In this document: in pieces, positions 2,058-52,618 of the stretch | How the letters are laid out: every line of letters starts with the position of its first letter | How positions within the stretch are numbered: position 1 is the stretch's first letter | Assembly: GCA_016206725.1 (NCBI GenBank) | Contig: JACQRA010000088.1 | Span: forward strand, 1,622-65,621 | Origin: Candidatus Omnitrophota bacterium | Lineage (GTDB): Bacteria > Omnitrophota > Gorgyraeia > Aquiviventales > Aquiviventaceae | Reading direction: 5' to 3' | DNA length: 64,000 nt | Notes under the pieces: generated by a model | The model's database searches: none | Seen by the model: the letters and a program-made list of their open reading frames with translations, nothing else | Told to the model about the DNA's origin: nothing | Position numbers and translations under genes: made by a program

Positions 2058-3317
2058 TCACGCGACCTCGTGGCGTAAGGACCACCGGCCGCCCTCGCGC
2101 GTCCAGAGATGCGGCGAGCGGAACTCGTCGCACAGCTCCATGAACCGCTCGACGGTCAGCCCCAAGGCTTCCAGCACCTCTCGAACATATCGCCCTGGCT
2201 GCTCGCCGTCGAAGCGGCGCACCAGGGCGATGCCTTCCTCGCGCGTGAGATGCTTGTTGCGAATCTCCTGCGAGGCGTCATACGACGCCCGGCCAAGGCC
2301 GAACTTGATGTGCGTCGTGTAGTAGTGCAGATCGTCGATCTTGTCATCAATGCTGTTGTACTTGCTGTAGGTTCCCTCGGTGCGGAACGGGCGGGCTTGG
2401 AAGCCGGTGTGTTCGACCGCGTAGTAATACGCCTCTTGAGGCGTCCACTTGATGTAGTAGCCCATGTAGTGCACTTCGATGTTGGAGCGGGCCAACTCCT
2501 CGGCGTCCGCCGGCAGGTAGGCCATGAAATCGTTCAGCGAGAGCTGGTGGCGCTCCATCAGCTCGGGCAGCGGCAGGCCGGCCAGGTAGAGCTCATCGAG
2601 GTGGCGCATGGTGTAGTAGGAGGTGTCGCGCAACGAGCTGGCGGTCTCCGCGATGGGACTGCCGTACTCCGCCTCCGGTTCGCCGAAGAACACCAACGGG
2701 ATCTGGTAGCGCAGCGCCACCTTGGGCGCCAGGTTTTTCTGACCCAGGATGAACGTCTGGAACGGATGCAGGAGATGCTCGATCGCCAGGCGGGTCAGCA
2801 GACGATGGACGCGGCCGTTCGGCTTGAAGGTCACATTGTCGAAGCCGCCCACCTCGATCCAATTCTGAAAATTTTTCCAGCCGTAGTCCGTGTACAGAAT
2901 CGGCGGCCAGGTCACGGTGAGAGGGTGCATGCCGTATGTGTACTTGAGCAGATGCGCCGCGTAGGCGCTGTCCTTCCCTCCGCTGCCCGGCACGAGGCAA
3001 TCATACGCGCCGTCGCTTCGGCGGTACCGGTCGAGCAGCGCGAGGAGTTCCTGCTCGCGCCGCGTCCAGTCAATCGTTTCCTTGCGCTGCGCGTATCGGC
3101 AGGCGTCGCACACGCCCTCCTCGTCAAGATGGAGATACTTCGCGCCCTGGCGGTCCGGCCGGTGCCGAAACTCCGGAATGGAGGAGGGACGCTGGTTGGA
3201 CATCACGCACCCGCGGCAAAAGATCACCTCGCGCGGCAGGCCGTATTTGACCTCCGGCGCGTCAGAGCGTTCTAACGCGGGCTTACGGGTCGCTGACTTC
3301 AGCATGTTGCACCTCAT
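2058..3317 (-). CDS. N-acetyl sugar amidotransferase (WbpG-like, PP-loop ATP pyrophosphatase)
   Basis: Contains the SGGKDS PP-loop and an N-terminal CxxC...NQRP...GVCDAC signature. The ORF runs to 3404, but the likely start is the internal Met near 3317/3305, just after the HisH-like stop at 3283. Confidence 0.75.
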   Translation of the reverse strand: MRCNMLKSATRKPALERSDAPEVKYGLPREVIFCRGCVMSNQRPSSIPEFRHRPDRQGAKYLHLDEEGVCDACRYAQRKETIDWTRREQELLALLDRYRRSDGAYDCLVPGSGGKDSAYAAHLLKYTYGMHPLTVTWPPILYTDYGWKNFQNWIEVGGFDNVTFKPNGRVHRLLTRLAIEHLLHPFQTFILGQKNLAPKVALRYQIPLVFFGEPEAEYGSPIAETASSLRDTSYYTMRHLDELYLAGLPLPELMERHQLSLNDFMAYLPADAEELARSNIEVHYMGYYIKWTPQEAYYYAVEHTGFQARPFRTEGTYSKYNSIDDKIDDLHYYTTHIKFGLGRASYDASQEIRNKHLTREEGIALVRRFDGEQPGRYVREVLEALGLTVERFMELCDEFRSPHLWTREGGRWSLRHEVA

Positions 3318-4008
3318 GGGATGGCGCGGTGATCCGCGCGGCGAGACGACGATACATGCGAAGACCGAGAGGCCCGCTGCGTTCCGGATGGTACTGGCTG
3401 GCAAACACGTGATCCTGTTGGAGTGTCGAGCAGAATGTCGTCGACCCGTAGCGCGTGACCGACAAGACGACCCGCGGATCCACCGGACGGAGATAGAAGG
3501 AATGGACGAAATACATGGCGGAGCCGTCCGTCAACCCCTCCAGCAACGAGCCGTCCCACGACCGCGCCTGCCGCTCGATTCGGTTCCATCCGATGTGGGG
3601 AACTTTGAGGACACGGCCCTGCTCGGTGGAGACGGCCAGCCGCACGACATCGCCCTCAATGATTCCCAAGCCCTTGTGCCGACCGAACTCTTCGCTTTCG
3701 CTCATCAACAACTGCATCCCCAAGCAGATTCCCATGAGGGGCGCGCCGGAGACGGCCGCGTCCCGCAACGGGCTGATCAGATCCAGCCGTCGCAGCGCCT
3801 CCATCGCATCACCGAAGGCGCCCACGCCAGGCAGGATCACGGCGTTCGCCGAGACGATCTGCTCCGAGGAGGAGGTAATGGCCGCGGACAGCCCGACCGC
3901 CTCGCAGGCGTGCTTGACGCTGAACAGGTTGCCCATCCCATAGTCCACGATGGCGACGCGTCCCACCACCTGGCGCGGCCCTACTCCTTCAGGCATAGTC
4001 GACCTCAC
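3283..4008 (-). CDS. HisH-like glutamine amidotransferase subunit (WbuY type)
   Basis: Class I GATase motifs VAIVDYGMGNLFSV and GICLGMQLL. Sits beside a HisF-like gene and a WbpG-like amidotransferase. Confidence 0.8.
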   Translation of the reverse strand: MRSTMPEGVGPRQVVGRVAIVDYGMGNLFSVKHACEAVGLSAAITSSSEQIVSANAVILPGVGAFGDAMEALRRLDLISPLRDAAVSGAPLMGICLGMQLLMSESEEFGRHKGLGIIEGDVVRLAVSTEQGRVLKVPHIGWNRIERQARSWDGSLLEGLTDGSAMYFVHSFYLRPVDPRVVLSVTRYGSTTFCSTLQQDHVFASQYHPERSGPLGLRMYRRLAARITAPSHEVQHAEVSDP

Positions 4009-7858: not shown

Positions 7859-8583
7859 GGCAAGGTAATCAGCCCGCTCCTCACCATGGCTTCGGCCCGC
7901 GCAAATTGCTTCGCATCATCAATCGACATCGCCCGTATCTCGGGAATCTCATGCAGCAGGTAACGCCCACCGCGCTGCCATGATCCCTGATGCACCCGCA
8001 CAAAGGCTGCGCGCCAGAGATAGATGGAGCCGTTGATCCGATACACCGTCGGGACGTCCTGGCGGCGCGTAAACTGCCCCCCCGACTCGATGAGCTGAGC
8101 CATACAGCCGTCGCGCTCCACGACACAATGCCAGATCGGATTGAACTCCGGCTCGGACACCCCGATGATGCCGTCGGCCTCGGGCGACTCGCGCAGCTTC
8201 CGCAGCGCGACGGTCACGTCCAACGGCTCGCGGGCCGGCGAGGTGGGATCGAGCAGCAAGATCTCCTTGTAGAATCTCCTTTCCTCCTTTTCGACAAACG
8301 CCAGCGCGTGCTGGACGACCATCCAGAGTGGCGTGTCATCTTGCGCCAACTCGGAGGGTCGGGAACAGGGCGTTTCGGCGCCAAACCGCTTCGCGACCTC
8401 CGCAATCTCTTGGACATCAGTCGAGACCACACACCGGTCAATCTCCGGACACATCTTGGCAAACAAGATGGAATGCGCGATGAGCGGCAGACCGAGAAAC
8501 GGCCGGATGTTTTTGCCCGGCAGCCCCTTGGATCCGCCGCGCGCCGGGATGACGGCCAGCAGCCCCTGCTCCGCGTCGCTCAT
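7831..8583 (-). CDS. neuA: acylneuraminate cytidylyltransferase (CMP-nonulosonate synthetase, NeuA family)
   Basis: LAVIPARGGSKGLPGKN motif. The likely start Met21 is at 8583 and forms ATGA with the upstream stop. Confidence 0.8.
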   Translation of the reverse strand: MSDAEQGLLAVIPARGGSKGLPGKNIRPFLGLPLIAHSILFAKMCPEIDRCVVSTDVQEIAEVAKRFGAETPCSRPSELAQDDTPLWMVVQHALAFVEKEERRFYKEILLLDPTSPAREPLDVTVALRKLRESPEADGIIGVSEPEFNPIWHCVVERDGCMAQLIESGGQFTRRQDVPTVYRINGSIYLWRAAFVRVHQGSWQRGGRYLLHEIPEIRAMSIDDAKQFARAEAMVRSGLITLPWLSEAVRV

Positions 8584-9569
8584 GAGGCATACTCCACTCG
8601 TTCCTCCCGCCGACTGTGGGAAGCAATGCGGGCGGCGTCGCACACCGCCAACGCCATCACCCCCTCCTGTCCGGTCGCCAAACGCGGATCGTGCGCGCCG
8701 CCGCAGGCGGCAAGAAAGGCTTGCGCTTGAGCGGTGAACATCGCATCGCGCGTTTGCGAGGACCGCCGGGTGATCGCCTCCGTCCCGTTGGCGGCGAGCG
8801 TGACCGTTCCCGCGACCCCATCCCAGCTCAGCGTGCCGTGTTCACCGCACGCCCGCATGGCGCGCCGCGGCGGCGTCGTCAAATAGTCCACGCACAGGCA
8901 GATGAGACATCCTTCGGCAGTTTCCCACGACACCTCCGCGATTTCCTCCGCGCTAATCCCCAACCGCCCCAGGTTTCGCACGCGCGCCTGCACCGCGCGC
9001 GGCCAGCCATACAGCCATCCGGCGTAATCCACCTCATGAATCAGATCCCGCAACACGCCGCCCTCATCCATATGAGCCGAATAGCGCTCACGGCATGGAC
9101 GGCCACCCGGATGCCAATCCGGCAGATACGACTGGCACTCGATCCGCACCGCATGGAGCCGTCCCAGCGACGGCAACCGTTCGCGGAACCAGCCCAACGA
9201 CTCGCTGAACCGCATCACGCAGCCCGTGAAGAGCCTCCGCTCGGCAGCCTGCGCGCGCGCGGCGAGCTCGCGCGCCTGCGCCGCATCACACGCCAGCGGC
9301 TTCTCAACGAGCAGATTCAGTCCCTGATCGAGCGCGTCGAGCCCATCCCGCAGGTGACGGCCGGTGTCGGTCGCAATGATCGCCGCCGTCGCGCCCAACT
9401 CGGCCGCCTCCCGCACATCGGCGGCCGTTGAAAATCCTTGCGCGGCCAGCTCGCCCCTGCGTTCGGCCCGAATCGGCACCGCAATGGGGCACAGCCCACC
9501 GCTCTGCGTCAAGACCCGTAGGTGCCTCGTCCCAATGCTGCCGGTTCCCACCACCGCAATGGCACTCAT
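8580..9569 (-). CDS. Gfo/Idh/MocA family NAD(P)-dependent oxidoreductase
   Basis: IAVVGTGSIG Rossmann motif and EKP motif. The ORF extends to 9608; the internal Met gives a conventional N-terminus. Confidence 0.7.
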   Translation of the reverse strand: MSAIAVVGTGSIGTRHLRVLTQSGGLCPIAVPIRAERRGELAAQGFSTAADVREAAELGATAAIIATDTGRHLRDGLDALDQGLNLLVEKPLACDAAQARELAARAQAAERRLFTGCVMRFSESLGWFRERLPSLGRLHAVRIECQSYLPDWHPGGRPCRERYSAHMDEGGVLRDLIHEVDYAGWLYGWPRAVQARVRNLGRLGISAEEIAEVSWETAEGCLICLCVDYLTTPPRRAMRACGEHGTLSWDGVAGTVTLAANGTEAITRRSSQTRDAMFTAQAQAFLAACGGAHDPRLATGQEGVMALAVCDAARIASHSRREERVEYAS

Positions 9570-9591: not shown

Positions 9592-11010
9592 TTACCGACG
9601 CCATCCAAGGTTCTCCCGAAGATCCGCGACGCGAAACGTCTGGATTAAGTTCATGCGGTTGCCGGCTCGCGGATAGCCCACCGCGGTCACCAGAATGATG
9701 TCTTCGTCCGTCAGCTGCTCTCTCCGCCAGAGCACCTCGAGACATCGGGGGATGTGATCGGTGCTCGTGCGTGAAAAGGGCACGTCCACGTGAACGCCTT
9801 CCGTGCCGGCGAACAGTTGGAAGCTTCTGGCCGCGGCAGCGTCATCGCTCACGGCGAGAATCGGCTGGACAGGGTGGTGGGTCGCGATCGCGCGCGCCGC
9901 ATATCCCGATTTCGTAATGGCCACGATCTTGGTGATGGGCAGCTGGCGGCACAGCAGGGCGATGGCTTCTCCGACCGCTTCCGGGATGGTCCGCGAGGAC
10001 GCCGCAATCTCCTCGGCCGCTCGACTGCGGTGGAGGCTCACCGCATCCACAATGCGGCGCATCGTCTTCACCGCCTCGATCGGATACGCGCCCACCGCGG
10101 TTTCTGCGGAGAGCATGACCGCCGACGCGCCATCCAGGACGGCATTGCTGATGTCGCTGACCTCGGCTTTCGTCGGAACAGGCGCGCGCACCATCGAGTG
10201 GAGCATTTCCGTGGCGATGATCACCGGCTTGTACACCCGCCTGGCCGAGGCGAGGATGCGCTTCTGGTGCAACACCACCCGCTCCAAATCCCGCGTCTCC
10301 GTCGAGAGATCGCCGCGATCAATCATGATGGCATCGGCGGATTCCAGGATCTCCTCGAGCTGCTGCATCGCCTTGGGCGTTTCGATCTTCGCGATAATCC
10401 GCGGCCGTTCCGAGCCGATGAGCATCCGAATCGCCTCAAGCTGCTGCGCGGAATCAATGAAGCTGGCGCCGATAAAATCCACGCCCGCTTCGCACGCGAA
10501 GGCGATGAGGCGTTTGTCCGCTTCGGTCGTCAAGCCGCTCCACAACGCCGTGGGAATCGAAAGGCCCTTGGCGCTCGTCAGCGTGCCGCTGGTCTGCGCT
10601 TGGCAGACGAGGTCATGTTCGCCGACATCCACCACCGTGAACGCGAATTGCCCGTCATCCACCAGGACGCTGTCTTGCTTCGACACGACGCCGTGGAGCG
10701 CCGGGGCGTTGATCGGCACTTTGTCGCCGCCGCCGTCCTGCGCCGTGGTGAACACAATCGTATCCCCGGCTTGGAATCGCACATCAGTCGGCAGATTCGC
10801 CACGCGGATCTTCCGGCCAGGCAGATCCAACAGGATGGGCACGGCGGGAGCCATCTCGCGCAGCCGTTCGATCACTGTGCGGTGCCAGTCGAGCTGGTTG
10901 TGCGAACCGTTCAAGCGGGCGATGTCCATGCCGGCTTCGCAGAGGGCGCCGAGGGTGACCGCGTCACAGGTGGTCGGCCCAATGGTTGCCACGATCTTGA
11001 TTCGGCTCAT
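9592..11010 (-). CDS. pyruvate kinase family protein
   Basis: 472 aa with PK motifs KIVATIGP, RLNGSH, VLVDDG, GVDFIGASFI, IIAKIE, MIDRGDL, VIIATEMLHSM, AEVSDISNAV and MLSAETA. Variant DLPGRKIR in place of the canonical DTKGPEIR. Confidence 0.75.
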   Translation of the reverse strand: MSRIKIVATIGPTTCDAVTLGALCEAGMDIARLNGSHNQLDWHRTVIERLREMAPAVPILLDLPGRKIRVANLPTDVRFQAGDTIVFTTAQDGGGDKVPINAPALHGVVSKQDSVLVDDGQFAFTVVDVGEHDLVCQAQTSGTLTSAKGLSIPTALWSGLTTEADKRLIAFACEAGVDFIGASFIDSAQQLEAIRMLIGSERPRIIAKIETPKAMQQLEEILESADAIMIDRGDLSTETRDLERVVLHQKRILASARRVYKPVIIATEMLHSMVRAPVPTKAEVSDISNAVLDGASAVMLSAETAVGAYPIEAVKTMRRIVDAVSLHRSRAAEEIAASSRTIPEAVGEAIALLCRQLPITKIVAITKSGYAARAIATHHPVQPILAVSDDAAAARSFQLFAGTEGVHVDVPFSRTSTDHIPRCLEVLWRREQLTDEDIILVTAVGYPRAGNRMNLIQTFRVADLRENLGWRR

Positions 11011-16833: not shown

Positions 16834-17679
16834 TCAGCTCTTGATGATGAGTCCCTGGCCGGTGGGGCTGGCGAAAATCTCGCACCCCAGCTCCTCCACC
16901 AACCGATCCATCCCCTGTTTCTGTTCCCCGCGCCCCGGCTGGCCGTAATCGTCCAAGACGACCCAGGCGCCCCGGCTCAGCCGAGGCCAGAAATGCCGCA
17001 GCGCTTCCACCTCAGGGTAGACCGCATTCATGTCAAGGTGGAGAAACGCCACCGTGGGGATCTCCACGCGCGAGAGCGACTCGGGGACGTATCCCTTGAT
17101 GAACACCACCGACGGGAACGAGGAGAATGCGCGCTGGACCTCTTCATAGTAGCCGGTGTACGACTGATTGACCCCATCCAACCCCCTCCCATACAGCACG
17201 GTGCGTTCGTAGTCGGTCAGCTGGCCGTTCAACAACCCTTCCCAGCTATCAAAGAGGAAGAAACGCTTGTGGTGTCGCTGCCAATCCAGACTCGCGACAA
17301 TGCTCGCGGCGGCAAACCCTCTGGCGGTCCCGCACTCCACGAAATCGCCTTCCACCGTCACCGCTTGTCGAGCCGCCCACTGCAGCAGATAGGCACTCCA
17401 CATGGGACGCTCCTGGGCGGTCATCTGTTGGGCAAATCGGTGGCCTTTGAGAAAGCGCTCATCCGTCATGAAATCGCAGTTATGACGGCTGATGAGCTGA
17501 TTGTCTGCGTAGGTCGCGACATACCAATAGCGATGCAGCCGGAACAAACGGTTGAGTTGTGCCACGGTCATCTCTTTGCGAAACACCTGCTTCATCAGCG
17601 TGCCCTGAACACGGCTGCGAATCGTCCGCAGCGGTTTCTTGATGGGCTCTGGGAGGTAGCGTGTCAGCGGTCTCATCAT
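16834..17679 (-). CDS. TylF/MycF-family sugar O-methyltransferase
   Basis: DSWEG, LHLDMN and LDDYG motifs typical of macrocin O-methyltransferase-like enzymes. Confidence 0.65.
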   Translation of the reverse strand: MMRPLTRYLPEPIKKPLRTIRSRVQGTLMKQVFRKEMTVAQLNRLFRLHRYWYVATYADNQLISRHNCDFMTDERFLKGHRFAQQMTAQERPMWSAYLLQWAARQAVTVEGDFVECGTARGFAAASIVASLDWQRHHKRFFLFDSWEGLLNGQLTDYERTVLYGRGLDGVNQSYTGYYEEVQRAFSSFPSVVFIKGYVPESLSRVEIPTVAFLHLDMNAVYPEVEALRHFWPRLSRGAWVVLDDYGQPGRGEQKQGMDRLVEELGCEIFASPTGQGLIIKS

Positions 17680-18767
17680 CTTCTTTCGGTCATCGCTCGG
17701 TACATCGGCATGAAATCTTCATGATAGGGCGAGCGAGCCTTCAGCAGCGCCGACAACGAGATGGTGTCGCGCCGTCCAGGAAGCCGCGGACCCACCGCCC
17801 GCCACACCGACCGTGCCCCTGGAACGTTTCGAAGCCACTCGCGGGTGCGCCTCGTCAGGGACGGCCGCGGCGCGTCGCAGCCGCCGTTCGCCTTGTTGGA
17901 CAACACCCGAAGGGCGTAACACCAGAACGCCTGCGTGGCCACAGCCTCGGCGCGCTCTTGCGCGATGCCCTCCGCATCCTTCAACGCCTCGGCAAGACAG
18001 GACCTGAAGGCAGCGTACTTTCCGGCAAAGCTGGCTTCGGTGAACCATTCAATGACGTCCGTCGCCCTCGTGGTCTCGCGCGCGCCATCGAGATTCCGCA
18101 CCGAGCGGATCCACGCGTCCGGCCCGTCATGAATCTCTTTCAGGAGGTAGAGTTGATGGAGGCAATGCGCCTTGCCCTGAATGACATCCAGACCACCCAG
18201 CGCGAGCTCGCCCCACGCGTAGCCAAAACTATGAGCGCAGCAACGGCGGACGTTCTCGCGCAACAACGCCGTGCGATGGACGGAATAGTTCAGCACCGCG
18301 CCATAGCGTGTGAAATGATCCAGCAGACGCTCCGACGCCGTCGGCTGAGCGATCGCGCGCTGCGGATACACCGCGACCCACTCCATGGTCCCTCGAGAAG
18401 CTCCCGGCTTGAACGTCGCGCTTCGGCCATGCGCCAGGCTGTAATCCGGATGCGCCTCCAAGAACTGCGCGCCAAGCCTGAGGGTACGCGGCACCAAAAA
18501 ATCGTCATCGTTCCAGACCACGGTGTAGGGCGTGGTCACATGCGCGAGGCCGTCCGCGAGTTTCTCCATGGGAGGCATCGCCGGATCGTAACGCCGATGG
18601 ACAACTCCCTCCTCTGCCAGCGCCCTCCGCAGCGGGCCTTCCGGAAGCGCGTGAGCACTCGAATCCAACACATCCACTCGGCCAGGCCGTCCCACCGATG
18701 TGAGGTAGGCCAGCAGCCGCGTCAGTTCCTCATAACGGTTGTAGGTCGGGATGAGGACGGTCAGCAT
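17676..18767 (-). CDS. glycosyltransferase family 2-like protein
   Basis: N-terminus LTVLIPTYNRYEEL, which resembles a GT2 motif. Confidence 0.5.
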   Translation of the reverse strand: MLTVLIPTYNRYEELTRLLAYLTSVGRPGRVDVLDSSAHALPEGPLRRALAEEGVVHRRYDPAMPPMEKLADGLAHVTTPYTVVWNDDDFLVPRTLRLGAQFLEAHPDYSLAHGRSATFKPGASRGTMEWVAVYPQRAIAQPTASERLLDHFTRYGAVLNYSVHRTALLRENVRRCCAHSFGYAWGELALGGLDVIQGKAHCLHQLYLLKEIHDGPDAWIRSVRNLDGARETTRATDVIEWFTEASFAGKYAAFRSCLAEALKDAEGIAQERAEAVATQAFWCYALRVLSNKANGGCDAPRPSLTRRTREWLRNVPGARSVWRAVGPRLPGRRDTISLSALLKARSPYHEDFMPMYRAMTERR

Positions 18768-20497
18768 CGCGCGGTGACCAGTGTTCTCCGGCTGAGGCGG
18801 CGCTTGTGGCTTCGCCGTAAGATCTCCACGAGCGCGTCACAGACCATTGCCACCTCCGACTCGCCCAGTGTGGCGGCCGACGGCAGACAGACGCCATAGG
18901 GTGACAACGCGTACGACACCGGGTTGACGGTTCGCATGTCGCGGCCCCGACAGAACGGCTTGAAGGGCGGCATCGAGCTGAGCGGATAGAAAAACGGTCG
19001 CCCCCCGATGCCGCGCTGCTCCAGTGCTCGGACGATCGCTTCCTTCCGCAAACCGTAGGCGCGGCTGACCATCACCGCCGTGATCCAGAAGGTGCTGCGG
19101 CTTCCCGGCGTCTCCTGGTTCAAGCTGAGCCCCTCGACACCGTGCAGCCGTTGCGCGTACCAATGGAAGATTCTGCGACGCTGTTCCACCAACTCTTCCA
19201 AGCGATCCAATTGGGCCAGCCCCAACGCGGCCTGGACGTTCGTGTATTGGTACTTGTAGCCCAGCTCATGCGACCAGTAATAGCGCGCGCCAGGCGCTTT
19301 GTTGATCCCGTGATGCGCCAGCCGCTTGGCCCGTTCGTAGAGCCGCTTGTCGTCTGTCACCAGCATGCCCCCTTCGCCGGTCACCAACAGCTTGGTCCCG
19401 TTGAAGCTGTAGACGCCGACCGCCCCGAACGCCCCGGCCGGTTTGCCGAGGTAGAGTGCCCCAAGCGACTCGGCCGCGTCCTCGATCATCGGGATGCGAT
19501 GCCGGGCCGCGATGGCCGTGAGGGCGTTCACGTCCGGCATGTTGCCCAGCAGCCCCACCACGATGATCGCTTTGGTCCGTTTCGTGATCGAGGCCTCAAG
19601 CGCCTCAGGGCTCAGGCACCAACTGTGCCGATCAATATCCACGAGCACCGGCCGCGCCCCCACATAGCAGACCGGAGCCGCCTAGGCGACCCACGTCAAA
19701 TCCGGCGCACTCACCTCATCGCCCGGCCCGATTCCCAAGCTCATCAGCGCCACATGGATCGCGCCTGTGCAACTGCTCAGCGCAAGCGCATAGCGCCTGC
19801 CGGCATGAGCCGCCATCCGTCGTTCAAACTCATCAATCTCTCGGCGCATGTTCGTGTACCAGCCGTCCTGAACCGCCTGACTGACCCGCCGCACCTCCCA
19901 CTCGGTCATCGAGGGTCCAGCCGAAGGGATGAAGGCGCGTCGCGCCGACTCCAGTGCCGTCTCTCGCGGTTTCACTTTCGCAACCCGAATCGAATCCATA
20001 TGCGCCCCACCGATGAAGAAATGGTCCTTGTAGACCCCTTCGATCTGGAACCCCGCTTTGGCGAAGAGCCTCGCCGAGGCCGCGTTCTCGGCGTAATAGT
20101 CCGCATGAAGGCGGTGCAGTCCCCACGCGTTGAACGCATGATCCACCACGGCCTCAAGCGCCTCGGTCGCGCAGCCGTGGGACCATTGCGACTTGTCAAA
20201 GATCATCAAACTGAGTTCCGCGCGCCGATCAACCGGATGGATATTGAACAATCGGATGCCGCCGATATGCCGCCCGGAATCCTTGAGGAAGATCCCCAAC
20301 AACACGGATGCCCCCGGCTCGTTCGAACGTGTGATGTACGCCGCCGCGCTGGCCTCATCCCATCGTTGATGGCGCGCCTCGGTCCATCGCACCACCTCGG
20401 GATCGTTGAGCGCCTCGAGGTAGGCGGGTGTGATGTCCTCCGCGGTCAGCGGCCGAAGGGTCTGGTGTTCGGTGACGATCGGCTCCATCTGGCTCAT
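18761..20497 (-). pseudogene. GNAT N-acetyltransferase fused to DegT/DnrJ/EryC1 sugar aminotransferase, interrupted by in-frame TAG at 19682-19684
   Basis: ORFs 19682..20686 and 18761..19663 are in the same frame. They are separated by one TAG plus 6 codons (...PDLTWVA*AAPVCYVGARPVLVDID) inside the conserved DegT FVAT-ANA region. The N-terminus is a RimL-like GNAT. The likely start is Met64, forming ATGA with the upstream stop. Confidence 0.65.
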
Positions 20498-21567
20498 GTG
20501 AGGGTGGCCACCGGTGAGCCCGCCTTCAAGAGCGACTCCAGGTATTGCACCCGGTAGAACCTGATGTCCTGAAGCTGCGTCTGCGTCAACCCCAGCGCGC
20601 GTAATTCCCCGATCAGACGCTCGATCCCTCGCGCCACCGGCCACGCGCACGCAAACCCGGGGAGCGCTTCCTTCACGCGCTCGCACGCGACCCGGTAGGT
20701 CCTCCGATCAACGCCGTCCTGGATCTTCCGATCCCGGACGAGCTCCAGGCCGTCATCCGACCTCTGACGGCCCTGCGGGAGAAACTCCAGCTCGCACCCT
20801 GGAACCTGGCGCTGGATCATCTCGGCCACCTCGAGGATCCGATGACTCTGCCCCGTGTCGCCGATGTTCAGCCGCAGGGGCCCGCGCGGAGGGAGCGGCA
20901 TGTTGAGGCATCGTCGAATCGCCTCGCACGCATCCTCGATATGGACGAGCGGCCGCCAGGCCTTCCCGTCCGAGTTCAAGATGATCTTCTGGTTGGTCAA
21001 TGCCATCCCGACACACATGTTCACGACGAGGTCAAAGCGCATCCGAGGCGACAGGCCGAACACCGTGGCGAATCGCAAGATGATCGGCGCAAATGTCCCA
21101 TCGCTCATCGCGGTGAGATCCTGCTCAATCTGGAGCTTGTTCAGCGAATAGGGCGTCTGCGGGAACGTCGGCGACTCCTCCGTCACCAGCGCCTCGCCCC
21201 CGATCCCATACACCGAACAGCTCGAAGCAAAAATGAACCGGATCCCCATCGCCCTGCAGAGCGTCGCCAACCGGGCCGTGTACGCCCGCGTCGGATCGTA
21301 GACCGCCTCAGCGCTCAAGGAGCCGAACGGGTCATTGGAGATCCCCGCCAAATGGACCAGCGTCTCGGCGCCCGCGAGATCCTGTTCGGTGAGCTCGCGC
21401 ACGTCCTTAAAGATCGTCGCCTCCTGGGACGGATACAGCGTGCAGTCGCGAAAGAACCCAGCGTCGTATTCGCGCACGCGAATGCCCCGCTCCTTAAGGT
21501 ACGGCACAAGCCGGCTACCGATGTACGATTGGGACCCCGTGATCACGACCGTCTTCGACATCACCAT
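20494..21567 (-). CDS. NAD-dependent epimerase/dehydratase (SDR fold)
   Basis: MVMSKTVVITGSQSYIGS Rossmann motif and YSLNK catalytic motif. The upstream in-frame extension to 21639 is P/R-rich and has poor GC3, so it was judged non-coding. Confidence 0.7.
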   Translation of the reverse strand: MVMSKTVVITGSQSYIGSRLVPYLKERGIRVREYDAGFFRDCTLYPSQEATIFKDVRELTEQDLAGAETLVHLAGISNDPFGSLSAEAVYDPTRAYTARLATLCRAMGIRFIFASSCSVYGIGGEALVTEESPTFPQTPYSLNKLQIEQDLTAMSDGTFAPIILRFATVFGLSPRMRFDLVVNMCVGMALTNQKIILNSDGKAWRPLVHIEDACEAIRRCLNMPLPPRGPLRLNIGDTGQSHRILEVAEMIQRQVPGCELEFLPQGRQRSDDGLELVRDRKIQDGVDRRTYRVACERVKEALPGFACAWPVARGIERLIGELRALGLTQTQLQDIRFYRVQYLESLLKAGSPVATLT

Positions 21568-21698
21568 TGACGCAGGAGTTTTTTGAATTCGATCTCGCGG
21601 CCGGTGGATTGGGGGCACATGGGGCATTTGAGATTGCAACCGCCGGCCATCTCCAGGTTAATCTGTTTAATCTCGCCGATCGCGTAGGGCGATCCCAT
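21561..21698 (-). CDS. 45-aa ORF with radical-SAM-like CxxxCxxC motif (MGSPYAIGEIKQINLEMAGGCNLKCPMCPQSTGREIEFKKLLRQW)
   Basis: Perfect GAGGAGG sits 7 nt upstream of the ATG, embedded in the end of the rpe-like gene. GC3 is about 70%. The stop overlaps the next gene's start (ATGGTGA). Too short for the ORF table. Confidence 0.45.
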   Translation of the reverse strand: MGSPYAIGEIKQINLEMAGGCNLKCPMCPQSTGREIEFKKLLRQW

Positions 21699-21702
21699 AC
21701 GG

Positions 21703-22383
21703 TTACCTCCTCACGGGCTGTTGAACGTCACAGGGTTCGCGTAACGCGGCAATCGCCTGCCCAAACGCCTCGCAGGAAAAAATCGGATAGCCCGCCACCA
21801 GCGCCGTCGCGCCGGACTCCACGAGTTGCGGCCGCGTTTGCAGGGAAACGGCTCCGTCCACTTGAATCACCACGTCGCGCCCCTGTTGTTGGATCGCCTC
21901 AGCCAATTCCTTTAGGTTCCGGACGCCGCCGGCTTCCAAGGCGCCAGGACGGCCTGGTGCTACGGTCATCACGTTCACGACATCGCAGGCGGCCAGATGC
22001 GGCATGACGGCGCGAGCCGGGGTGGCCGGCGCGATGGCCAGGCCGGCCTGCCGCCTCTGCGCTCGAATCCGCTCCAACGTCACGGTCGGCTCCGCGCTGG
22101 TTTCAATGTGGATCAGCACGCCATCCGCGCCAGCGTCCACATACTGCGCCCAGCACGCCTCCGGCTCCTGGACGAGCAGGTGCACCTCGAAGGGCAGCCG
22201 CGTAGAACGGCGCAAGCCGCGAATGAACGACGGGCCCATGCACAACTCCGGGACAAACCGCCCGTCCATGACATCAAAATGCAGTGCGTCAATTCCTCCG
22301 GCTTCCAGCCGATGAATCTGATCCGCTAAATGACCCATGTCGGCGGAGCGCATGGCGGCTTTGATCAACAGGCGTGCCATCAC
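21703..22383 (-). CDS. rpe: ribulose-phosphate 3-epimerase family protein
   Basis: HFDVMDGRFVP signature in a 226-aa TIM barrel. Confidence 0.75.
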   Translation of the reverse strand: MMARLLIKAAMRSADMGHLADQIHRLEAGGIDALHFDVMDGRFVPELCMGPSFIRGLRRSTRLPFEVHLLVQEPEACWAQYVDAGADGVLIHIETSAEPTVTLERIRAQRRQAGLAIAPATPARAVMPHLAACDVVNVMTVAPGRPGALEAGGVRNLKELAEAIQQQGRDVVIQVDGAVSLQTRPQLVESGATALVAGYPIFSCEAFGQAIAALREPCDVQQPVRR

Positions 22384-23309
22384 GCGGCCTCTGCTCGGAC
22401 GAGACTCATCTCACGCTCCATCTCCGTGAGGCTTTCGTCCAGCGAGAGTAACCTCGTCCGGCGCAACACACCCTGAACCTTCGCTAGATGAAAGCCGGAT
22501 TGCAAAGGCCGAGGCCCGCGCTGTTCCAGCTCAGCCGTTGAAACGCCGTGGATGAGTGTTCGGTTCAATCCAAAACGCTCCGCGGTCTTCAGCGCCCACT
22601 CATACTTGGAACAGCGCGTCGTGCCGGCGACATGAAATAGACCCTGCTGTCCCAGCTCGACCAACTCCACCAGGGCTTCGGCGAACGTCGGCGCATACGT
22701 GACGTTTCCCACCTGATCATTCGGAACTCGCATCAGACGACCGGCGCGATCGTTGTCCAAGAGCTGCATGATGAAATTCTTGGCCGACACATGCGGCGCC
22801 CAACTGAAGACAAAGGACGTCCGCAGCACCAGCGCCTCCGGCAGGCGTTCCATCACGTAGCACTCCGCCATCAGCTTGGCGCGCCCCAACTGAGAGAGCG
22901 GATGGGGCGGATCGGTTTCGGCGTACGGCCCGGCCTGCCCATCGAAGACGTAATCGGTTGAGATCTGGATGAAGCGCGCGTTCACGGCCACCACGGCGTC
23001 AACGAGATGGCGCACTGTGTCATAGTGCGCGCGGATCGCAAGAGTTGGATCCGCTTCACACGCATCCGTGCCGCCTTGCGCGTTCAGGCTGTTCACGATC
23101 AGCCATGGGCGCCATTGCTCAATAAGCCGGCGCACCGGCTTGTCGTCCGTGGCGTCAAGCGCGACCGCTCCCGGCTGGGGATTCCGGTAGAAGGTCGGTA
23201 CGCAGGCCCAGCCTCGGTTCCGACACGCCTCCGCGAGACGCCAGCCGATTTGTCCGGAGCCGCCCACGATCAGGACCGGCTGCTCCTCGACCCTGCGCTT
23301 AGCCACCAT
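22380..23309 (-). CDS. RmlD-family nucleotide-sugar 4-reductase (dTDP-4-dehydrorhamnose reductase-like)
   Basis: From the internal Met: VLIVGGSGQIG, plus RmlD-like STDYVFDG. Confidence 0.65.
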   Translation of the reverse strand: MVAKRRVEEQPVLIVGGSGQIGWRLAEACRNRGWACVPTFYRNPQPGAVALDATDDKPVRRLIEQWRPWLIVNSLNAQGGTDACEADPTLAIRAHYDTVRHLVDAVVAVNARFIQISTDYVFDGQAGPYAETDPPHPLSQLGRAKLMAECYVMERLPEALVLRTSFVFSWAPHVSAKNFIMQLLDNDRAGRLMRVPNDQVGNVTYAPTFAEALVELVELGQQGLFHVAGTTRCSKYEWALKTAERFGLNRTLIHGVSTAELEQRGPRPLQSGFHLAKVQGVLRRTRLLSLDESLTEMEREMSLVRAEAA

Positions 23310-39978: not shown

Positions 39979-41024
39979 CAGACTGTTCCGGCCAGCGCGC
40001 GCGGCCGAGCCGCGGCGGCGCGAGCCGGAAGCGTTTCCTCGGACGATTCACAAAAGATGATCCGACTGCCGCCGGTCTCGAACCGGAACGGCACGTGCAA
40101 CACGCCCCGCAGCGCGGCTTGCACGCGATCCTGCTCCTCGGGCCGCACGAATAATAAGAGGAAGCCCCCACCGCCGGCGCCGAGGAGCTTGCCGCCGATG
40201 GCACCGGCGGCTCGCGCCGTCTCGTAGAGGGTGTCGATCTGCGGCGTGGAAATCCGGCTAGTCAGACTGCGTTTCACCTGCCAGCCCTCATGGAGCAACC
40301 GCCCGAACGCTGTGAGATCGATCTCTTCCTGTAGAATCCGAATGGCTTCATCCACCATCTGTTGCATCGCGCGCAGCTCCGCGGTCTTCTTCGGCGTCGC
40401 CTGGATCTGGTCGCGGGCGATGTCCGAGGCCGTGCGCGAAAACCCCGTAAAGAAGAGCATCAGGTGTTCCTGGAGGCGCGTACGCCGCGTCTCATCGATC
40501 ATGACCGGTGAGACCTGAAAACGGTGGTCGGTCGGAAAGTCAATCCGATTGAATCCCCCAAAGGCGGCGACGATCTGATCTTGTGACCCCACAGACTCTT
40601 TGAGCACCTCTTGCTCGATGTGGATCGCCTCGCGCGCGAGCTGCATCTTGGTGGGCATCCGACCCTTGAGGCCATGAAGGGCGTGCAAGAAACCAACCGT
40701 AAAAGCGGAACTCGACCCTAGGCCCGTCCTGGCGGGCAAGTCTCCGTCGTGGTGGATTTCCAGTCCTTCCGTGATGTGGAGAGCACGCAGCACCCCCCGG
40801 ACCGCGGAGTGCTCGATCTGATCGTTCGATGCCACCGACTCGACCTTCGAGTAGACGATCCGGCTTTTGTGTTCGAAGAACGGCGGCAGATACCGGCAGG
40901 TGAGGTAGCAGTATTTATCAATGGTCGTCGCCAACACCGCGCCTCCGTGCTCCTGGAACCACACCGGATAGTCGGTGCCGCCTCCAAAAAATGAGATCCG
41001 GTACGGCGTGCGGCTGATGATCAT
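39978..41024 (-). CDS. GHMP kinase, second HddA-like heptose-7-phosphate kinase paralog
   Basis: RISFFGGGTD, GLGSSSA and GAGGGGF motifs. Architecture is the same as 23299..24300. Confidence 0.7.
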   Translation of the reverse strand: MIISRTPYRISFFGGGTDYPVWFQEHGGAVLATTIDKYCYLTCRYLPPFFEHKSRIVYSKVESVASNDQIEHSAVRGVLRALHITEGLEIHHDGDLPARTGLGSSSAFTVGFLHALHGLKGRMPTKMQLAREAIHIEQEVLKESVGSQDQIVAAFGGFNRIDFPTDHRFQVSPVMIDETRRTRLQEHLMLFFTGFSRTASDIARDQIQATPKKTAELRAMQQMVDEAIRILQEEIDLTAFGRLLHEGWQVKRSLTSRISTPQIDTLYETARAAGAIGGKLLGAGGGGFLLLFVRPEEQDRVQAALRGVLHVPFRFETGGSRIIFCESSEETLPARAAAARPRALAGTV

Positions 41025-42538
41025 GCTGCGACGGGCGCGTGCTGCCTTGTCAGCTTATGCGACGCCATCTGTCGGATGTGCGCCACGGTTTCTTCGCCGA
41101 ACTTCTGGCGGATCATCTCCAGGTACCTGGACGAGGTGAAGTACGTCTCGAAGGCGTGATCGCGAAACCGCAACACCTCCGCCCCTGAGAGGTAGTTCGT
41201 CGGCAGCGGCAGGGTGTCCACCGCATGCTGGGAGTAGCCGGACCACCGCTGCGGCAGCGGCCAGCCATTCTGAATGGCCAGTTCATACAGCGCGCTTCCA
41301 GGGTAAGACATACAGGAATAGAAATTGGCGAACTCACAGTTGAGCTCGAGTGCCAGATCGAGTGTTTCCTGCATCGTGGCGAGGTCGTCTTCGGGCAAGC
41401 CGAACATGTAGTTGCCGATCACGTAGATGCCGGCCTCCCGCACCCGAGTGATGGTCTTGGCGATGTCCTCTTGATCGAAGCCTTTCTGCACGTGATCCCG
41501 TACCCGCGCGTTGGCCGCCTCGATCCCGAACGCCAGCCAGTGGAAACCGGCACGTTTGAGCACCTCCACCATCTCTTCCCGCACCGTATCGACTCGCGCG
41601 TAGGCCCAGATGTTCAGATCGTAGCCGCGCGCGATGATGGCTTCGCAGATTCCGAGGACATGCTTGGGGTGAAGCACAAACATCTCATCCGCGATCTTGA
41701 CGTGCCGTACCCCGTACTGATTGACCAGGGTGTCAAGCTGTGCCATCACGGATTCGATACTCCAGAATCTGTAGCTGTTCGTCGTGGCTTTCAGTCCAAG
41801 CTCCTTTTCCCCACTCTTGAACGGAATTTGGATACAGCAGAACTGACAATGGAACGGACACCCAAGGGTTGTATATAAACTCGCATACGGCTGACGCGAC
41901 GGCTCGCCGAGGGCATGCCAGTTATGCGCGCGGTATTTTTCCATCGGCAACAGATCCCACGCAACGCCAGGCATCTCGCCGGCGAGGTCTTTGAGCAGGG
42001 GTGCTGCGGGATTGTGCCGGATGGCGCCGTCTTCGCGATACCACAGGTCCCGAACCTTCTGCAGCTCGGGATGCGGGGTCTTCAACGCCTCGATCAATTC
42101 CCACATCGTGTAGAGCCCCTCGCCGCTGCAGACGAAATCCCCTGCCTCCTCGCGCAGGGTGCGCTCAGGCAGCGCGGCGACATGACCGCCAACTAAGAGC
42201 ACGGCCTGCTCGGGATGACGCCGCTTGATTGCGGTGCAGATCGCCCCGGCCGCGGTCATGTTCTGGGTCGAGGCAGAGGGCTGGTGGCCGTAGACGACCA
42301 CGGCGATCAGGCGCGGTTTCATCGCGATGGCTCGCGCTGCCGCCGCGTCGGGTGTGAGTTCTTCAGCTTCGGCATCGAGAACGGCCACGGAGCAGCCTTT
42401 CCGACGGAGAAACGTCGCCATCAATCCCGCCCACACCGGCGGCTCAATCGCGGTCAACGTCGTGCCAAGCCCCTGATAGACCTGGGCGCGACTCCCCGGA
42501 TTGATCAGCACCACGTCGAGGTCCGGCGCTGCCCTCAT
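41021..42538 (-). CDS. B12-binding (cobalamin-dependent) radical SAM enzyme
   Basis: N-terminal B12-binding-like domain (VVLINPG...), then CPFHCQFC, a CxxxCxxC motif. ATGA overlap with the UbiA stop. Confidence 0.75.
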   Translation of the reverse strand: MRAAPDLDVVLINPGSRAQVYQGLGTTLTAIEPPVWAGLMATFLRRKGCSVAVLDAEAEELTPDAAAARAIAMKPRLIAVVVYGHQPSASTQNMTAAGAICTAIKRRHPEQAVLLVGGHVAALPERTLREEAGDFVCSGEGLYTMWELIEALKTPHPELQKVRDLWYREDGAIRHNPAAPLLKDLAGEMPGVAWDLLPMEKYRAHNWHALGEPSRQPYASLYTTLGCPFHCQFCCIQIPFKSGEKELGLKATTNSYRFWSIESVMAQLDTLVNQYGVRHVKIADEMFVLHPKHVLGICEAIIARGYDLNIWAYARVDTVREEMVEVLKRAGFHWLAFGIEAANARVRDHVQKGFDQEDIAKTITRVREAGIYVIGNYMFGLPEDDLATMQETLDLALELNCEFANFYSCMSYPGSALYELAIQNGWPLPQRWSGYSQHAVDTLPLPTNYLSGAEVLRFRDHAFETYFTSSRYLEMIRQKFGEETVAHIRQMASHKLTRQHAPVAA

Positions 42539-43491
42539 CTCATGCGTTCTCCGTAGAGAATCACGCCGGCGGTCGCCACCCACAACAGCAGATTCACCAT
42601 CATCGGGCGGTCCGTCAGAATGCTCTGGGTCGGGTCTCCCCCTTCTTCCTTGTGATAGACCAAATAGAGGTAACGGAAGAACCCATACAAGACAAACGGG
42701 ACGGTCAGCAGCAGCCCTGGCGAACCAAATCGCCCGACGATCTCCTCGCTCACGGTGTAGAGCGTGTAGCTGACCAGTGCGGAAGCCGTGATAATGCCGA
42801 CCATCGCATCGAGAAACGGCAGAGGGTAATCCGTCAGGACTTGCCGGTGATTCGGCGCGCCGTCCTCGAGGAGCACGAGCTCATGGCGACGTTTGCAGAG
42901 GGCGATGAACAACGCCAACAACGTCGTGCAAATCAGCACCCACGCGCTCATCGTCACTTGGAGCACGACGGCCCCGGCAAGCACCCGCAAGAGATAGCCG
43001 GCTGCGACCACGAAAACATCCAGGATGACGGCATGCTTGAGCCTCCAGGCATAGAGCAGGTTCAGTCCCCAATAGGTTGAGAGGACAAGGGCTAAGGACA
43101 CGCTCAAGGCGGCCCCACCCAACAGACTCAGCAGCAACAACCCCACAACCGCGGCTCGGGCGATCCCCACACGCAGCAGCCCCGCGGCCAGCGGGCGGCG
43201 GCGCTTTTCCGGATGGAGGCGGTCCTGTGCGCAATCGGTGAGATCATTCAAGAGGTAGATCGAACTGCTGGCGAGGCAGAAACATCCACAGGCCGCGAGG
43301 CTGCGCAGGAGTGCGTCCAGGGAAAAGACGTGCGGCGAAAAGAAGAGCGGAGCCAACACGAAGAAATTTTTCACCCACTGCGTGGGTCGCAGCTCAACCC
43401 AGAGGGCCCGCAGCGGACCTGGTGGGGGAGGCCGGTTCGGCTCGGCCTGGCTCACAGGCGTTTCCAAGACCAGCGAATCAGGAGACATCAT
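42535..43491 (-). CDS. UbiA-family prenyltransferase, decaprenyl-phosphate phosphoribosyltransferase-like
   Basis: NDLTDCAQDRLHPEKRRRPLAAG motif (NDxxDxxxDR...HP.K..RPL), about 8 TM helices, 318 aa. Confidence 0.7.
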   Translation of the reverse strand: MMSPDSLVLETPVSQAEPNRPPPPGPLRALWVELRPTQWVKNFFVLAPLFFSPHVFSLDALLRSLAACGCFCLASSSIYLLNDLTDCAQDRLHPEKRRRPLAAGLLRVGIARAAVVGLLLLSLLGGAALSVSLALVLSTYWGLNLLYAWRLKHAVILDVFVVAAGYLLRVLAGAVVLQVTMSAWVLICTTLLALFIALCKRRHELVLLEDGAPNHRQVLTDYPLPFLDAMVGIITASALVSYTLYTVSEEIVGRFGSPGLLLTVPFVLYGFFRYLYLVYHKEEGGDPTQSILTDRPMMVNLLLWVATAGVILYGERMR

Positions 43492-51169: not shown

Positions 51170-52618
51170 TCATGGCGCAGAGATGACAGGACCGCCTGAG
51201 GGGATGGCTTTCGGATTGGCGGTATAGCGACGGGAGTCGACGTATTTGCCCGTGATCTTGTACATCCCAAGTAAATTGAACACCCTCCGGAAGAAATACC
51301 GGTATTGATCCCATCTGATGCGCGTGAGCAAACAGAAGATGGTGCTCGGCTTGAGGTAAAATTTCCGGTTGGCACGGCGTTGGATCGTTGAGAGCTCCTC
51401 AGAGCTGACCTTGGCCATTTTTGGATTAAACGTATAAAAATTAAATGTCGACCAATCCACCTCTTCTCCCTGAGCATACTCCTGTTTCCACAGCTCGTAG
51501 AGCTCCGTCCCGGGAAGCGGCGTCACCTTGGTAAAATTGGCACGAGAGAGCGGAAGGGAGAGCGCAAAGTCCACCGTTTGTTGAATCTCTTCGCGAGTTT
51601 CTGTCGGAAATCCAATCATGAAAAACCCGCAGGACTCGATCCCGGCATCGCTGACCCACCCGACGACTTTTCGAACCAGCTCGACATTGAGTCGCTTCTT
51701 GACGAGGTCGAGGATCCGTTGGTTGGCGGATTCGATCCCCAGGGACATGAGGTAACAGCCGGCACGTTTCATGATCGCCAGCATTTCCGGATCCAACCGA
51801 TCGATCCGCACCCCGTTGGGGAGACTCCAGATGACGTCGAGCTTCTTGCGGATCAGGGCCTCGCAGAACTCGAACACCCGATCTCGTTTGATCGTGAAGT
51901 TATCATCCTCAATTTGAATTTCACGCACGCCGTATTGCTCATGCAGCATCGCGATCTCGCTGACGACGGCGTTGACGCTTCGCCAGCGCATCTTTTTGCC
52001 GGCGGTGATCGGGGCGCTGCAATAGGTGCAGGAATACGGACAGCCTCGGGAGGTGATGATGGGGGCGAGGGGAAACCGCCGCGCAATCATCCCATGCGGG
52101 GCTTTCGGGTAGCTTCGCGGGTCAATGAGATCCCAGGCGGGTTGGCCGAAATCATCGATGTCAGGATAGAAGGTCGGTTTGGCGCAGGTTCGAAAGGGTG
52201 CGCCATCTTTCCAATACACCAGTCCCTCAATGTCTGATGGAGCCTTCCCTTCGACCAGCTCGTTGAGCAGCACCTCCCCTTCTGCCATACACGCAAAATC
52301 AGCTCCTGACTGGACGAGCGCTTGTTCAGGATTGGCAATGGTATGGGGTCCACCGATCACGGTCGGCAGGCCGAATGATTTGGCCCGTTTGACTTCTTCA
52401 ACCATTTCCGGGAAGTAGGTCGTCATCGAGGTCAACCCGACCCAATCGTATTCCTGAGGGTCGTAGCGCACGTCTTCCCGAAGGCCATCGATCGCGCGGA
52501 CCGAGTGCCCTCGTTTCAGGAGGGCGGACGCGAGGTAGCCAAGCCCGAGATGGGGTGCGACGATATATCCGTTATACTTGGGGCTGATGAGGAGCACTCT
52601 GGCCATTGCGAGACTCAC
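51170..52618 (-). CDS. B12-binding (cobalamin-dependent) radical SAM enzyme
   Basis: N-terminal B12-binding-like domain (VLLISP...), then SRGCPYSCTYC, a CxxxCxxC motif. 482 aa. Confidence 0.75.
   Translation of the reverse strand: MSLAMARVLLISPKYNGYIVAPHLGLGYLASALLKRGHSVRAIDGLREDVRYDPQEYDWVGLTSMTTYFPEMVEEVKRAKSFGLPTVIGGPHTIANPEQALVQSGADFACMAEGEVLLNELVEGKAPSDIEGLVYWKDGAPFRTCAKPTFYPDIDDFGQPAWDLIDPRSYPKAPHGMIARRFPLAPIITSRGCPYSCTYCSAPITAGKKMRWRSVNAVVSEIAMLHEQYGVREIQIEDDNFTIKRDRVFEFCEALIRKKLDVIWSLPNGVRIDRLDPEMLAIMKRAGCYLMSLGIESANQRILDLVKKRLNVELVRKVVGWVSDAGIESCGFFMIGFPTETREEIQQTVDFALSLPLSRANFTKVTPLPGTELYELWKQEYAQGEEVDWSTFNFYTFNPKMAKVSSEELSTIQRRANRKFYLKPSTIFCLLTRIRWDQYRYFFRRVFNLLGMYKITGKYVDSRRYTANPKAIPSGGPVISAP

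Follow-up and report, generated by a model that had tools for sequence, protein, structure and literature searches.

A 45-codon open reading frame (ORF) on the minus strand of a 64,000-nucleotide stretch of DNA from a Candidatus Omnitrophota bacterium (assembly GCA_016206725.1, contig JACQRA010000088.1, positions 1,622 to 65,621; the whole stretch is hereafter 'the window') is very probably the surviving first 42 codons of a gene for a radical SAM/SPASM sugar-modifying enzyme, the rest of the gene having given way to a gene for a NAD-type epimerase of the short-chain dehydrogenase/reductase (SDR) class. We conclude that a polysaccharide cluster undergoing diversification in an Omnitrophota metagenome-assembled genome (MAG) has here kept a gene remnant, ordinary in kind and recent in origin, and that the annotation appropriate to the ORF is truncated radical SAM pseudogene and not small protein. 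The locus shows single-gene exchange diversifying the glycan clusters of an uncultivated phylum, Candidatus Omnitrophota, and its interest is modest but real.

An earlier interpretation of the window, made from the letters alone (the sequence-only reading), had described an ATG at 21698 preceded by GAGGAGG, a 45-codon ORF, and a TGA that overlaps the ATG of the epimerase gene, and all of these features are present. Direct reading of minus-strand positions 21712-21559 gives GAGGAGG-TAACCGT-ATG, then 45 codons, then TGATG, and translation of 21698..21561 gives MGSPYAIGEIKQINLEMAGGCNLKCPMCPQSTGREIEFKKLLRQW. The GAGGAGG is embedded in the final codons of the upstream gene, an rpe-like gene (..P V R R TAA; stop at 21705..21703), and the TGA of the ORF (21563..21561) has one base in common with the ATG of the epimerase gene (21561..21559; overlap TGATG, 21563-21559). 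The G+C content at third codon positions, which had been put near 70%, computes to 0.696 for the ORF, as compared to 0.51 and 0.44 for its other two frames and 0.74-0.83 for neighbouring genes. The coordinates of the features are collected in Table 1.

Table 1. Features of the remnant and of the adjoining genes (window coordinates).
Feature	Coordinates	Strand	Details
45-codon ORF (radical SAM/SPASM gene stub, by homology)	21561..21698	minus	45 aa + TGA at 21563..21561
Shine-Dalgarno sequence of the stub, GAGGAGG	21706..21712	minus	7 nt (TAACCGT) 5' of ATG 21698
Codons 1-42, radical SAM/SPASM N-terminal homology	21573..21698	minus	100% aa identity to L052
CNLKCPMC (CxxxCxxC), [4Fe-4S]/SAM cluster-binding loop	21615..21638	minus	codons 21-28; invariant in alignment A1
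Junction	21571..21572	minus	..AAACTCCTGC/GTCAATGGTGATG in the window; L052 goes on CGTTGGAGGAG.. (PLEEF..); blastn stops at 21572, alignment A2
SDR NAD-dependent epimerase/dehydratase, in place of the radical SAM body	20494..21561	minus	355 aa; PF01370 E=2.8e-33
rpe-like gene (ribulose-phosphate 3-epimerase family)	21703..22380	minus	PF00834 E=2.2e-47
GNAT-DegT (N-acetyltransferase-aminotransferase) fusion gene	18761..20497	minus	usual neighbour downstream of the radical SAM gene in relatives

The CxxxCxxC motif of the ORF had been taken for the cysteine loop of radical SAM enzymes, and this assignment is borne out by strong, family-specific homology; the motif is not a chance match. A search of the 45-mer against 5.8 billion proteins (E=3.1e-12) returned three short proteins at 71-79% identity, and on their contigs a frameshift or in-frame stop interrupts a longer radical SAM/SPASM gene, of which each of the three is the N-terminal part. 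An exhaustive search against 1.84 billion representatives gave 34 hits (best E=5.7e-10), comprising full-length proteins and short fragments, several of which end in junk or in translated Nextera adapter and none of which ends like the window ORF. In tblastn of three reconstructed full-length relatives against the 64-kb window, residues 1-42 only are matched (E=1.6e-15), and no remnant of the rest of the gene (barrel, SAM-binding motif, SPASM) is found anywhere in the 64 kb, in any frame. A metagenome scan identified 25 loci with the full-length gene, which encodes about 330-350 aa, and the full-length relatives carry the Pfam Radical_SAM domain and SPASM (PF13186, the C-terminal, cysteine-rich, auxiliary-cluster domain). 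The solved structures closest to the intact family are those of the sugar-modifying radical SAM enzymes BlsE (PDB 7vob), BtrN (4m7t), and DesII (8hzv); no curated NCBIfam equivalog threshold is reached by the intact family (best 61.8 bits vs. a cut-off of 380). A scan of species-representative genomes, a set outside which the window's own genome lies, yielded one close relative (L004, on a 3-kb contig), the others being distant radical SAM proteins at 24-40% identity, and an exact look-up of the 45-mer gave no match. Alignment to the radical SAM profile, which the sequence-only reading had proposed as a check, places ORF residues 16-33 on positions 2-19 of Pfam Radical_SAM (PF04055; E=0.029), that is, at the N-terminal end of the profile, with a score of 15 bits that falls below the gathering threshold of 29.5 bits, which we attribute to the short length of the match (18 residues aligned). 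NCBIfam likewise gives weak, N-terminal radical SAM matches only, as expected for 45 residues. Public fragments of the family are often broken (in-frame stop in L001, 358-1068; frameshifts in L002, 211-1259, and L003, 44-986), and several database 'proteins' of the family terminate in translated adapter.

The cysteine loop is the sole radical SAM feature that the stub retains. The TIM-barrel core, the SAM-binding motif, and the SPASM domain are lacking: there is no above-threshold score over a partial TIM barrel of ~150-200 residues, no auxiliary-cluster domain that would mark the SPASM/twitch subfamily, and no GGE-type motif, which is SGSGEP at residues 65-70 in the intact protein of a metagenome contig, L052, and which occurs in the window in no frame. 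Like BlsE, BtrN, and DesII, which are twitch-type radical SAM/SPASM enzymes, the stub has beta strand 1 and the CxxxCxxC loop, the binding site of the SAM-cleaving [4Fe-4S] cluster; unlike them, it has just 42 of ~340 residues, and barrel core, SAM-binding motifs, and auxiliary-cluster domain are gone. The 45-aa product cannot function as a radical SAM enzyme; most likely it is a by-product. A search of the window for a paralogous source of the stub gave just two other CxxxCxxC ORFs of appreciable length, at ~41860 and 52042, which have nothing beyond the motif in common with the stub. These two long minus-strand ORFs (41021..42583, with CPFHCQFC near 41860, and 51170..52618, with CPYSCTYC near 52042) are presumably intact radical SAM enzymes of the same large minus-strand glycan cluster.

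Comparison with L052 defines the breakpoint. L052 (Ga0114945_10120188, sample 3300009444) is 97.9% identical in DNA sequence to window positions 22633..21572 (22 mismatches in 1062 nt by blastn). Its sequence from Shine-Dalgarno to ATG is identical to that of the window and there serves an intact radical SAM gene, which differs from the stub by three synonymous differences, at 21645, 21642, and 21639, in adjacent codons 18-20. After the 42 codons, L052 reads PLEEFRKIIDQAVPYGLKYVTLSGSGEPLL... and continues as the intact enzyme (PLEEFRKIIDQ...SGSGEPLL...) to residue 105, where the contig ends. The window, by contrast, past the junction (GTCAATGGTGATG) has three codons foreign to the radical SAM gene (R Q W) and then a stop, at which the epimerase gene starts, with the junction 21572/21571 positioned 10 nt upstream of the epimerase ATG; to the right of 21572 there is no homology to L052, and a forced alignment gives 54% identity. 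At the junction, neither a mobile element nor a repeat was seen. The ORF thus shows what marks a gene remnant: part-homology (residues 1-42 of ~340), syntenic position, and a definable breakpoint against L052. Identity to L052 is a mosaic: left of 22634, a position within the RmlD-like gene, it is 79%, vs. 97.9% in 22633-21572, and 8 of the 22 mismatches crowd into 21793-21760, at the 3' end of the rpe-like gene; this mosaic suggests repeated short recombination tracts. We infer that the truncation was recent, since a lineage with the intact gene differs by only ~2% in DNA, and the recency of the event would explain why the stub is still an open frame.

Gene order in relatives places a full-length radical SAM/SPASM gene at the position of the stub. 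The window has, on the minus strand, genes for an SDR, a 406-aa ORF of unknown family, a cupin, a GHMP kinase, an RmlD-like protein, the rpe-like protein, the stub, the SDR epimerase, GNAT-DegT, and a glycosyltransferase-like protein. Contigs L039 and L041 have SDR, cupin, GHMP kinase, RmlD-like, rpe-like, and then full-length radical SAM/SPASM, an order also found, in part, in L004, L038, L042, L052, and L053. The pair rpe-like then radical SAM occurs in L001, L004, L038, L039, L041, L042, L052, and L053; the series GHMP, RmlD-like, rpe-like, radical SAM in L004, L039, and L041; and the pair radical SAM then GNAT-DegT in L033, L034, L040, and L054. In L040, tandem radical SAM/SPASM copies (8504-9496 and 10001-10981; 76% and 80% identity to the reference) stand ahead of GNAT-DegT. 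The sequence-only reading had entertained a fossil N-terminus of a deleted radical SAM gene that keeps its expression signals, and had suggested a look at whether orthologous loci hold the full-length gene. They do, directly after the rpe-like gene, and the loss of the body is upheld; what changes is the word 'deleted', since it appears that the SDR epimerase gene took the place of the body and that the body was not merely removed. Replacement is favoured over mere deletion because clusters that bear the radical SAM gene supply the nearest matches to the flanking genes and because the window's epimerase follows a radical SAM gene in 0 of the 25 related loci. The two parts of the window GNAT-DegT show 59-62% and 67-70% identity to those of radical SAM-type clusters vs. 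47-55% and 57-59% to those of SDR-type clusters, which points to displacement in place. The simplest reading of these gene orders and identities is that the radical SAM body alone was displaced by an imported SDR gene.

According to this proposal, an ancestral polysaccharide cluster would have had the order GHMP kinase, RmlD-like, rpe-like, radical SAM/SPASM, GNAT-aminotransferase; illegitimate recombination would have removed radical SAM codons 43 to end, so that an SDR epimerase/dehydratase gene now stands where they had been, its ATG 10 nt past the left junction; and the old radical SAM frame would read on for three codons (R Q W) to a TGA that overlaps the SDR ATG. O-antigen and capsule loci commonly hold truncated genes left by cassette exchange. 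The window resembles such remnants of polysaccharide-cluster recombination in having a truncated gene at the edge of a swapped segment in a large glycan cluster, with mosaic identity to a close relative; it differs in that the translation signals of the stub are undamaged and the stub's end coincides exactly with the start of the incoming gene.

The stub is probably still translated, because its initiation region is, base for base, that of the intact L052 gene. No Shine-Dalgarno core (GGAG, GAGG, AGGA) is present in the 20 nt before the SDR ATG (AAACTCCTGCGTCAATGGTG), and none at 5-12 nt upstream of ATG 21561, and a scan of 20300-22600 gave no promoter-like or terminator-like site. The stop of the stub overlaps the downstream start, and other gene junctions of the cluster overlap in like manner. 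ATGA and TGATG stop/start overlaps have been shown experimentally to mediate termination-reinitiation coupling (2019, PMC6728339). The stub and SDR genes resemble such pairs in their overlap (TGATG) and in that the Shine-Dalgarno sequence of the upstream ORF is strong and the downstream gene has none that is usable; they differ from such pairs in that the upstream partner is a 45-codon gene fragment and not a functional gene. By termination-reinitiation at TGATG the stub may hand ribosomes to the SDR gene; that is, it may be the ribosome entry point for the epimerase, by accident or by selection among recombinants.

Certain observations count against part or all of the reading of the ORF as a remnant of a gene displaced in place. 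The window may have arisen by internal deletion in an ancestor that carried both the radical SAM gene and the SDR gene, and, because the L052 contig ends within the radical SAM gene, such a deletion and an imported replacement are indistinguishable; when the full locus of the L052 lineage was sought with the 105-aa fragment, the best relative had 75% identity and none exceeded 174 aa (the query's own 78% fragment, P0001, was also returned). The chance that the old frame would end at that particular TGA is one in three, so the overlap need not reflect selection. The three synonymous differences from L052, taken alone, could hint at purifying selection on the peptide; against this, they lie in adjacent codons and may predate the truncation. 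Finally, no independent contig spans the junction, and the two Logan contigs of the same strain (SRR12113385) stop short of it: L059, which is 100% identical and covers 22761..21606, ends at 21606, and L055, which is 99.9% identical and covers 21500..17227, ends at 21500. Both contigs end in Nextera adapter, and untrimmed adapter (AGATGTGTATAAGAGACAG) is found at positions 1-19 of L055 and at both ends of L059.

This last observation bears on whether the join at 21572/21571 is an assembly chimera between a strain with an intact radical SAM gene and another strain or locus with the epimerase gene, in which case the stub would exist in no cell. Also consistent with a chimera are the co-occurrence of a close variant with the intact gene (L052, 97.9% identical up to the junction) and the mosaic left flank, where identity to L052 drops to 79% left of 22634. 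We nevertheless consider a chimera unlikely, and give it a small probability, on four grounds. First, such joins arise within shared sequence, and right of the junction the sequences have nothing in common; k-mers across ..CTCCTGC/GTCAATGG.. must therefore have been in the reads. Second, a collapse of strains with rpe-radical SAM and rpe-SDR orders would be expected within the rpe-like gene, not 126 nt into the radical SAM gene. Third, the adapter ends of the Logan contigs point to low coverage, not to branching of the assembly graph. Fourth, the join yields a clean TGATG overlap, like other junctions of the cluster (for example, that between the RmlD-like and rpe-like genes, 22380-22383).

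The sequence-only reading had offered, as its other option, a genuine small Fe-S- or zinc-binding peptide: that is, a 45-aa product kept for a function of its own. An intact ORF with a strong Shine-Dalgarno sequence and an ATG, three cysteines arranged as CxxxCxxC, and three of three substitutions against L052 being synonymous are what such a peptide would show. These points do not carry it far. The ~2% divergence from the intact gene is too little time for 126 nt to decay, and the intactness of the ORF is therefore uninformative on selection. The 45 residues include three cysteines and zero histidine, fewer than a four-ligand Cys/His set, and the product has no TIM-barrel core, GGE-type motif, or SPASM domain. 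No family of short homologs appears in the two protein searches, the short matches being fragments of full-length genes cut at varied positions, and no conserved short ORF was found in diverged genomes in the searches made. The sole other locus found with the order rpe then SDR, that of L056, has no such ORF. We therefore set this option aside as highly improbable. An older scar was considered in L056 (130-176), where the rpe tail ..HPAVMGSPTGHRS* has MGSP, the first four residues of the stub and of the L052 radical SAM protein; the candidate was rejected, the DNA alignment giving p about 0.09 against shuffles.

Least probable of all, and close to negligible, is a mis-framed sequence, in which an indel would hide a longer epimerase N-terminus or a continuing radical SAM gene: the epimerase frame is indeed open upstream to a TTG at 21639, and the window has at least one suspect base elsewhere (TAG at 19683, TCG in a 99.9%-identical contig), but the upstream 'extension' (MQSQMPHVPPIHRPRDRIQKTPAS) is simply an out-of-frame translation of the radical SAM stub, radical SAM sequence is encoded by none of the frames beyond 21572, and every base of the stub as far as 21606 is confirmed by L059. 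We retain 21561 as the start of the epimerase: in 11 of 12 homologs the first residue aligns with this ATG, the Pfam Epimerase profile begins at residue 5, and MBI4354242.1, an Omnitrophota MAG protein at NCBI with 100% identity to the epimerase, has the same start codon. These findings agree with the sequence-only reading's own rejection of an N-terminal extension, and the outcome it had named as able to overturn its view, a conserved upstream start in orthologs, is not seen in 11 of the 12 homologs. The identical NCBI protein notwithstanding, an exact look-up of the 355-aa epimerase gave no match.

At its other end, the epimerase gene overlaps the gene that follows, its TGA and the ATG of that gene together reading ATGA (20497..20494). 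The closest relatives of the epimerase have 61-67% identity and are located in other cluster contexts: L060 has C-methyltransferase, SDR, GNAT, DegT; L057 and L058 have SDR followed by a short-chain dehydrogenase gene, preceded in L057 by a C-methyltransferase gene; and L056, from an Omnitrophota MAG, has rpe, SDR, GNAT-DegT, lacks a radical SAM ORF, and has an overlap between the stop of rpe and the start of the SDR gene. In the window epimerase the GxxGxxG motif reads GSQSYIG vs. GSLGYLG in homologs, the middle Gly being replaced by Ser, and the C-terminus is ~10-25 residues shorter than in the 12 homologs and has no counterpart of an almost invariant Trp. It may be that the swap has its right-hand junction in the 3' end of the epimerase gene. 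A frameshift at this 3' end was considered (GGLT motif in the next frame), and the evidence is too weak to claim it.

Two pairs of loci in which radical SAM and SDR genes alternate in one slot bear on the function that was exchanged. One is C-methyltransferase, radical SAM, GNAT-DegT (L054) vs. C-methyltransferase, SDR, GNAT, DegT (L060); the other is rpe, radical SAM (L041) vs. rpe, SDR, GNAT-DegT (L056). The stretches concerned are 1046-5143 in L054, 4768-8818 in L060, 1-3141 in L056, and 9267-11029 in L041, the intact radical SAM/SPASM gene of L054 lying at 2337-3386. Some database homologs of the epimerase are SDR-GNAT fusion proteins (P0090, P0104, P0106, P0113). The slot alternation, together with these fusions, suggests that the radical SAM and SDR enzymes do equivalent jobs, and a keto-sugar-forming step would be expected in the slot directly upstream of an aminotransferase. 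A more specific proposal, which we consider rather unlikely as a whole, is non-orthologous displacement: a NAD-dependent SDR performing the equivalent step (supply of a keto-sugar for the GNAT-aminotransferase) would have taken the position of an oxygen-sensitive radical SAM/SPASM enzyme, and the 42-codon stub would have been co-opted as an initiation and coupling leader.

Sugar oxidation of the kind carried out by BtrN has an NAD-dependent counterpart. The resemblance of the present case to that pair is that a radical SAM/SPASM enzyme and a NAD-type SDR swap in one slot directly upstream of an aminotransferase; the difference is that, for the window-type radical SAM enzyme and the SDR, the same job is a hypothesis from position alone. 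The BtrN reaction itself is that of a radical SAM dehydrogenase (PMC2996862). As positional alternatives, the uncharacterised radical SAM/SPASM and SDR families provide a testable hint of equivalent steps performed by radical vs. nicotinamide chemistry. If the displacement proposal is true, the radical SAM/SPASM family gains a predicted function, sugar oxidation or epimerisation equivalent to that of the SDR, and the alternative cluster pairs constitute a natural experiment.

The genes on either side are represented in the same-strain contigs. The rpe-like gene scores 173 bits against TIGR01163, under the equivalog cut-off of 212.6; it is 100% identical on L059 and has 98% aa identity in L052, and, in exact look-up of its product, the 225-aa ATG-start version matches L059 and the 226-aa GTG-start version has no match. 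At 19684..19682 the GNAT-DegT frame is interrupted by a TAG; the residue at this site is Ser in six relatives (..TWVA-S-AAP..). L055 has TCG at this site and encodes an intact 578-aa GNAT-DegT protein, and three of the four differences between the window and L055 cluster at 19683-19710. Either the sequence is locally wrong here or the TAG is a nonsense mutation specific to the strain.

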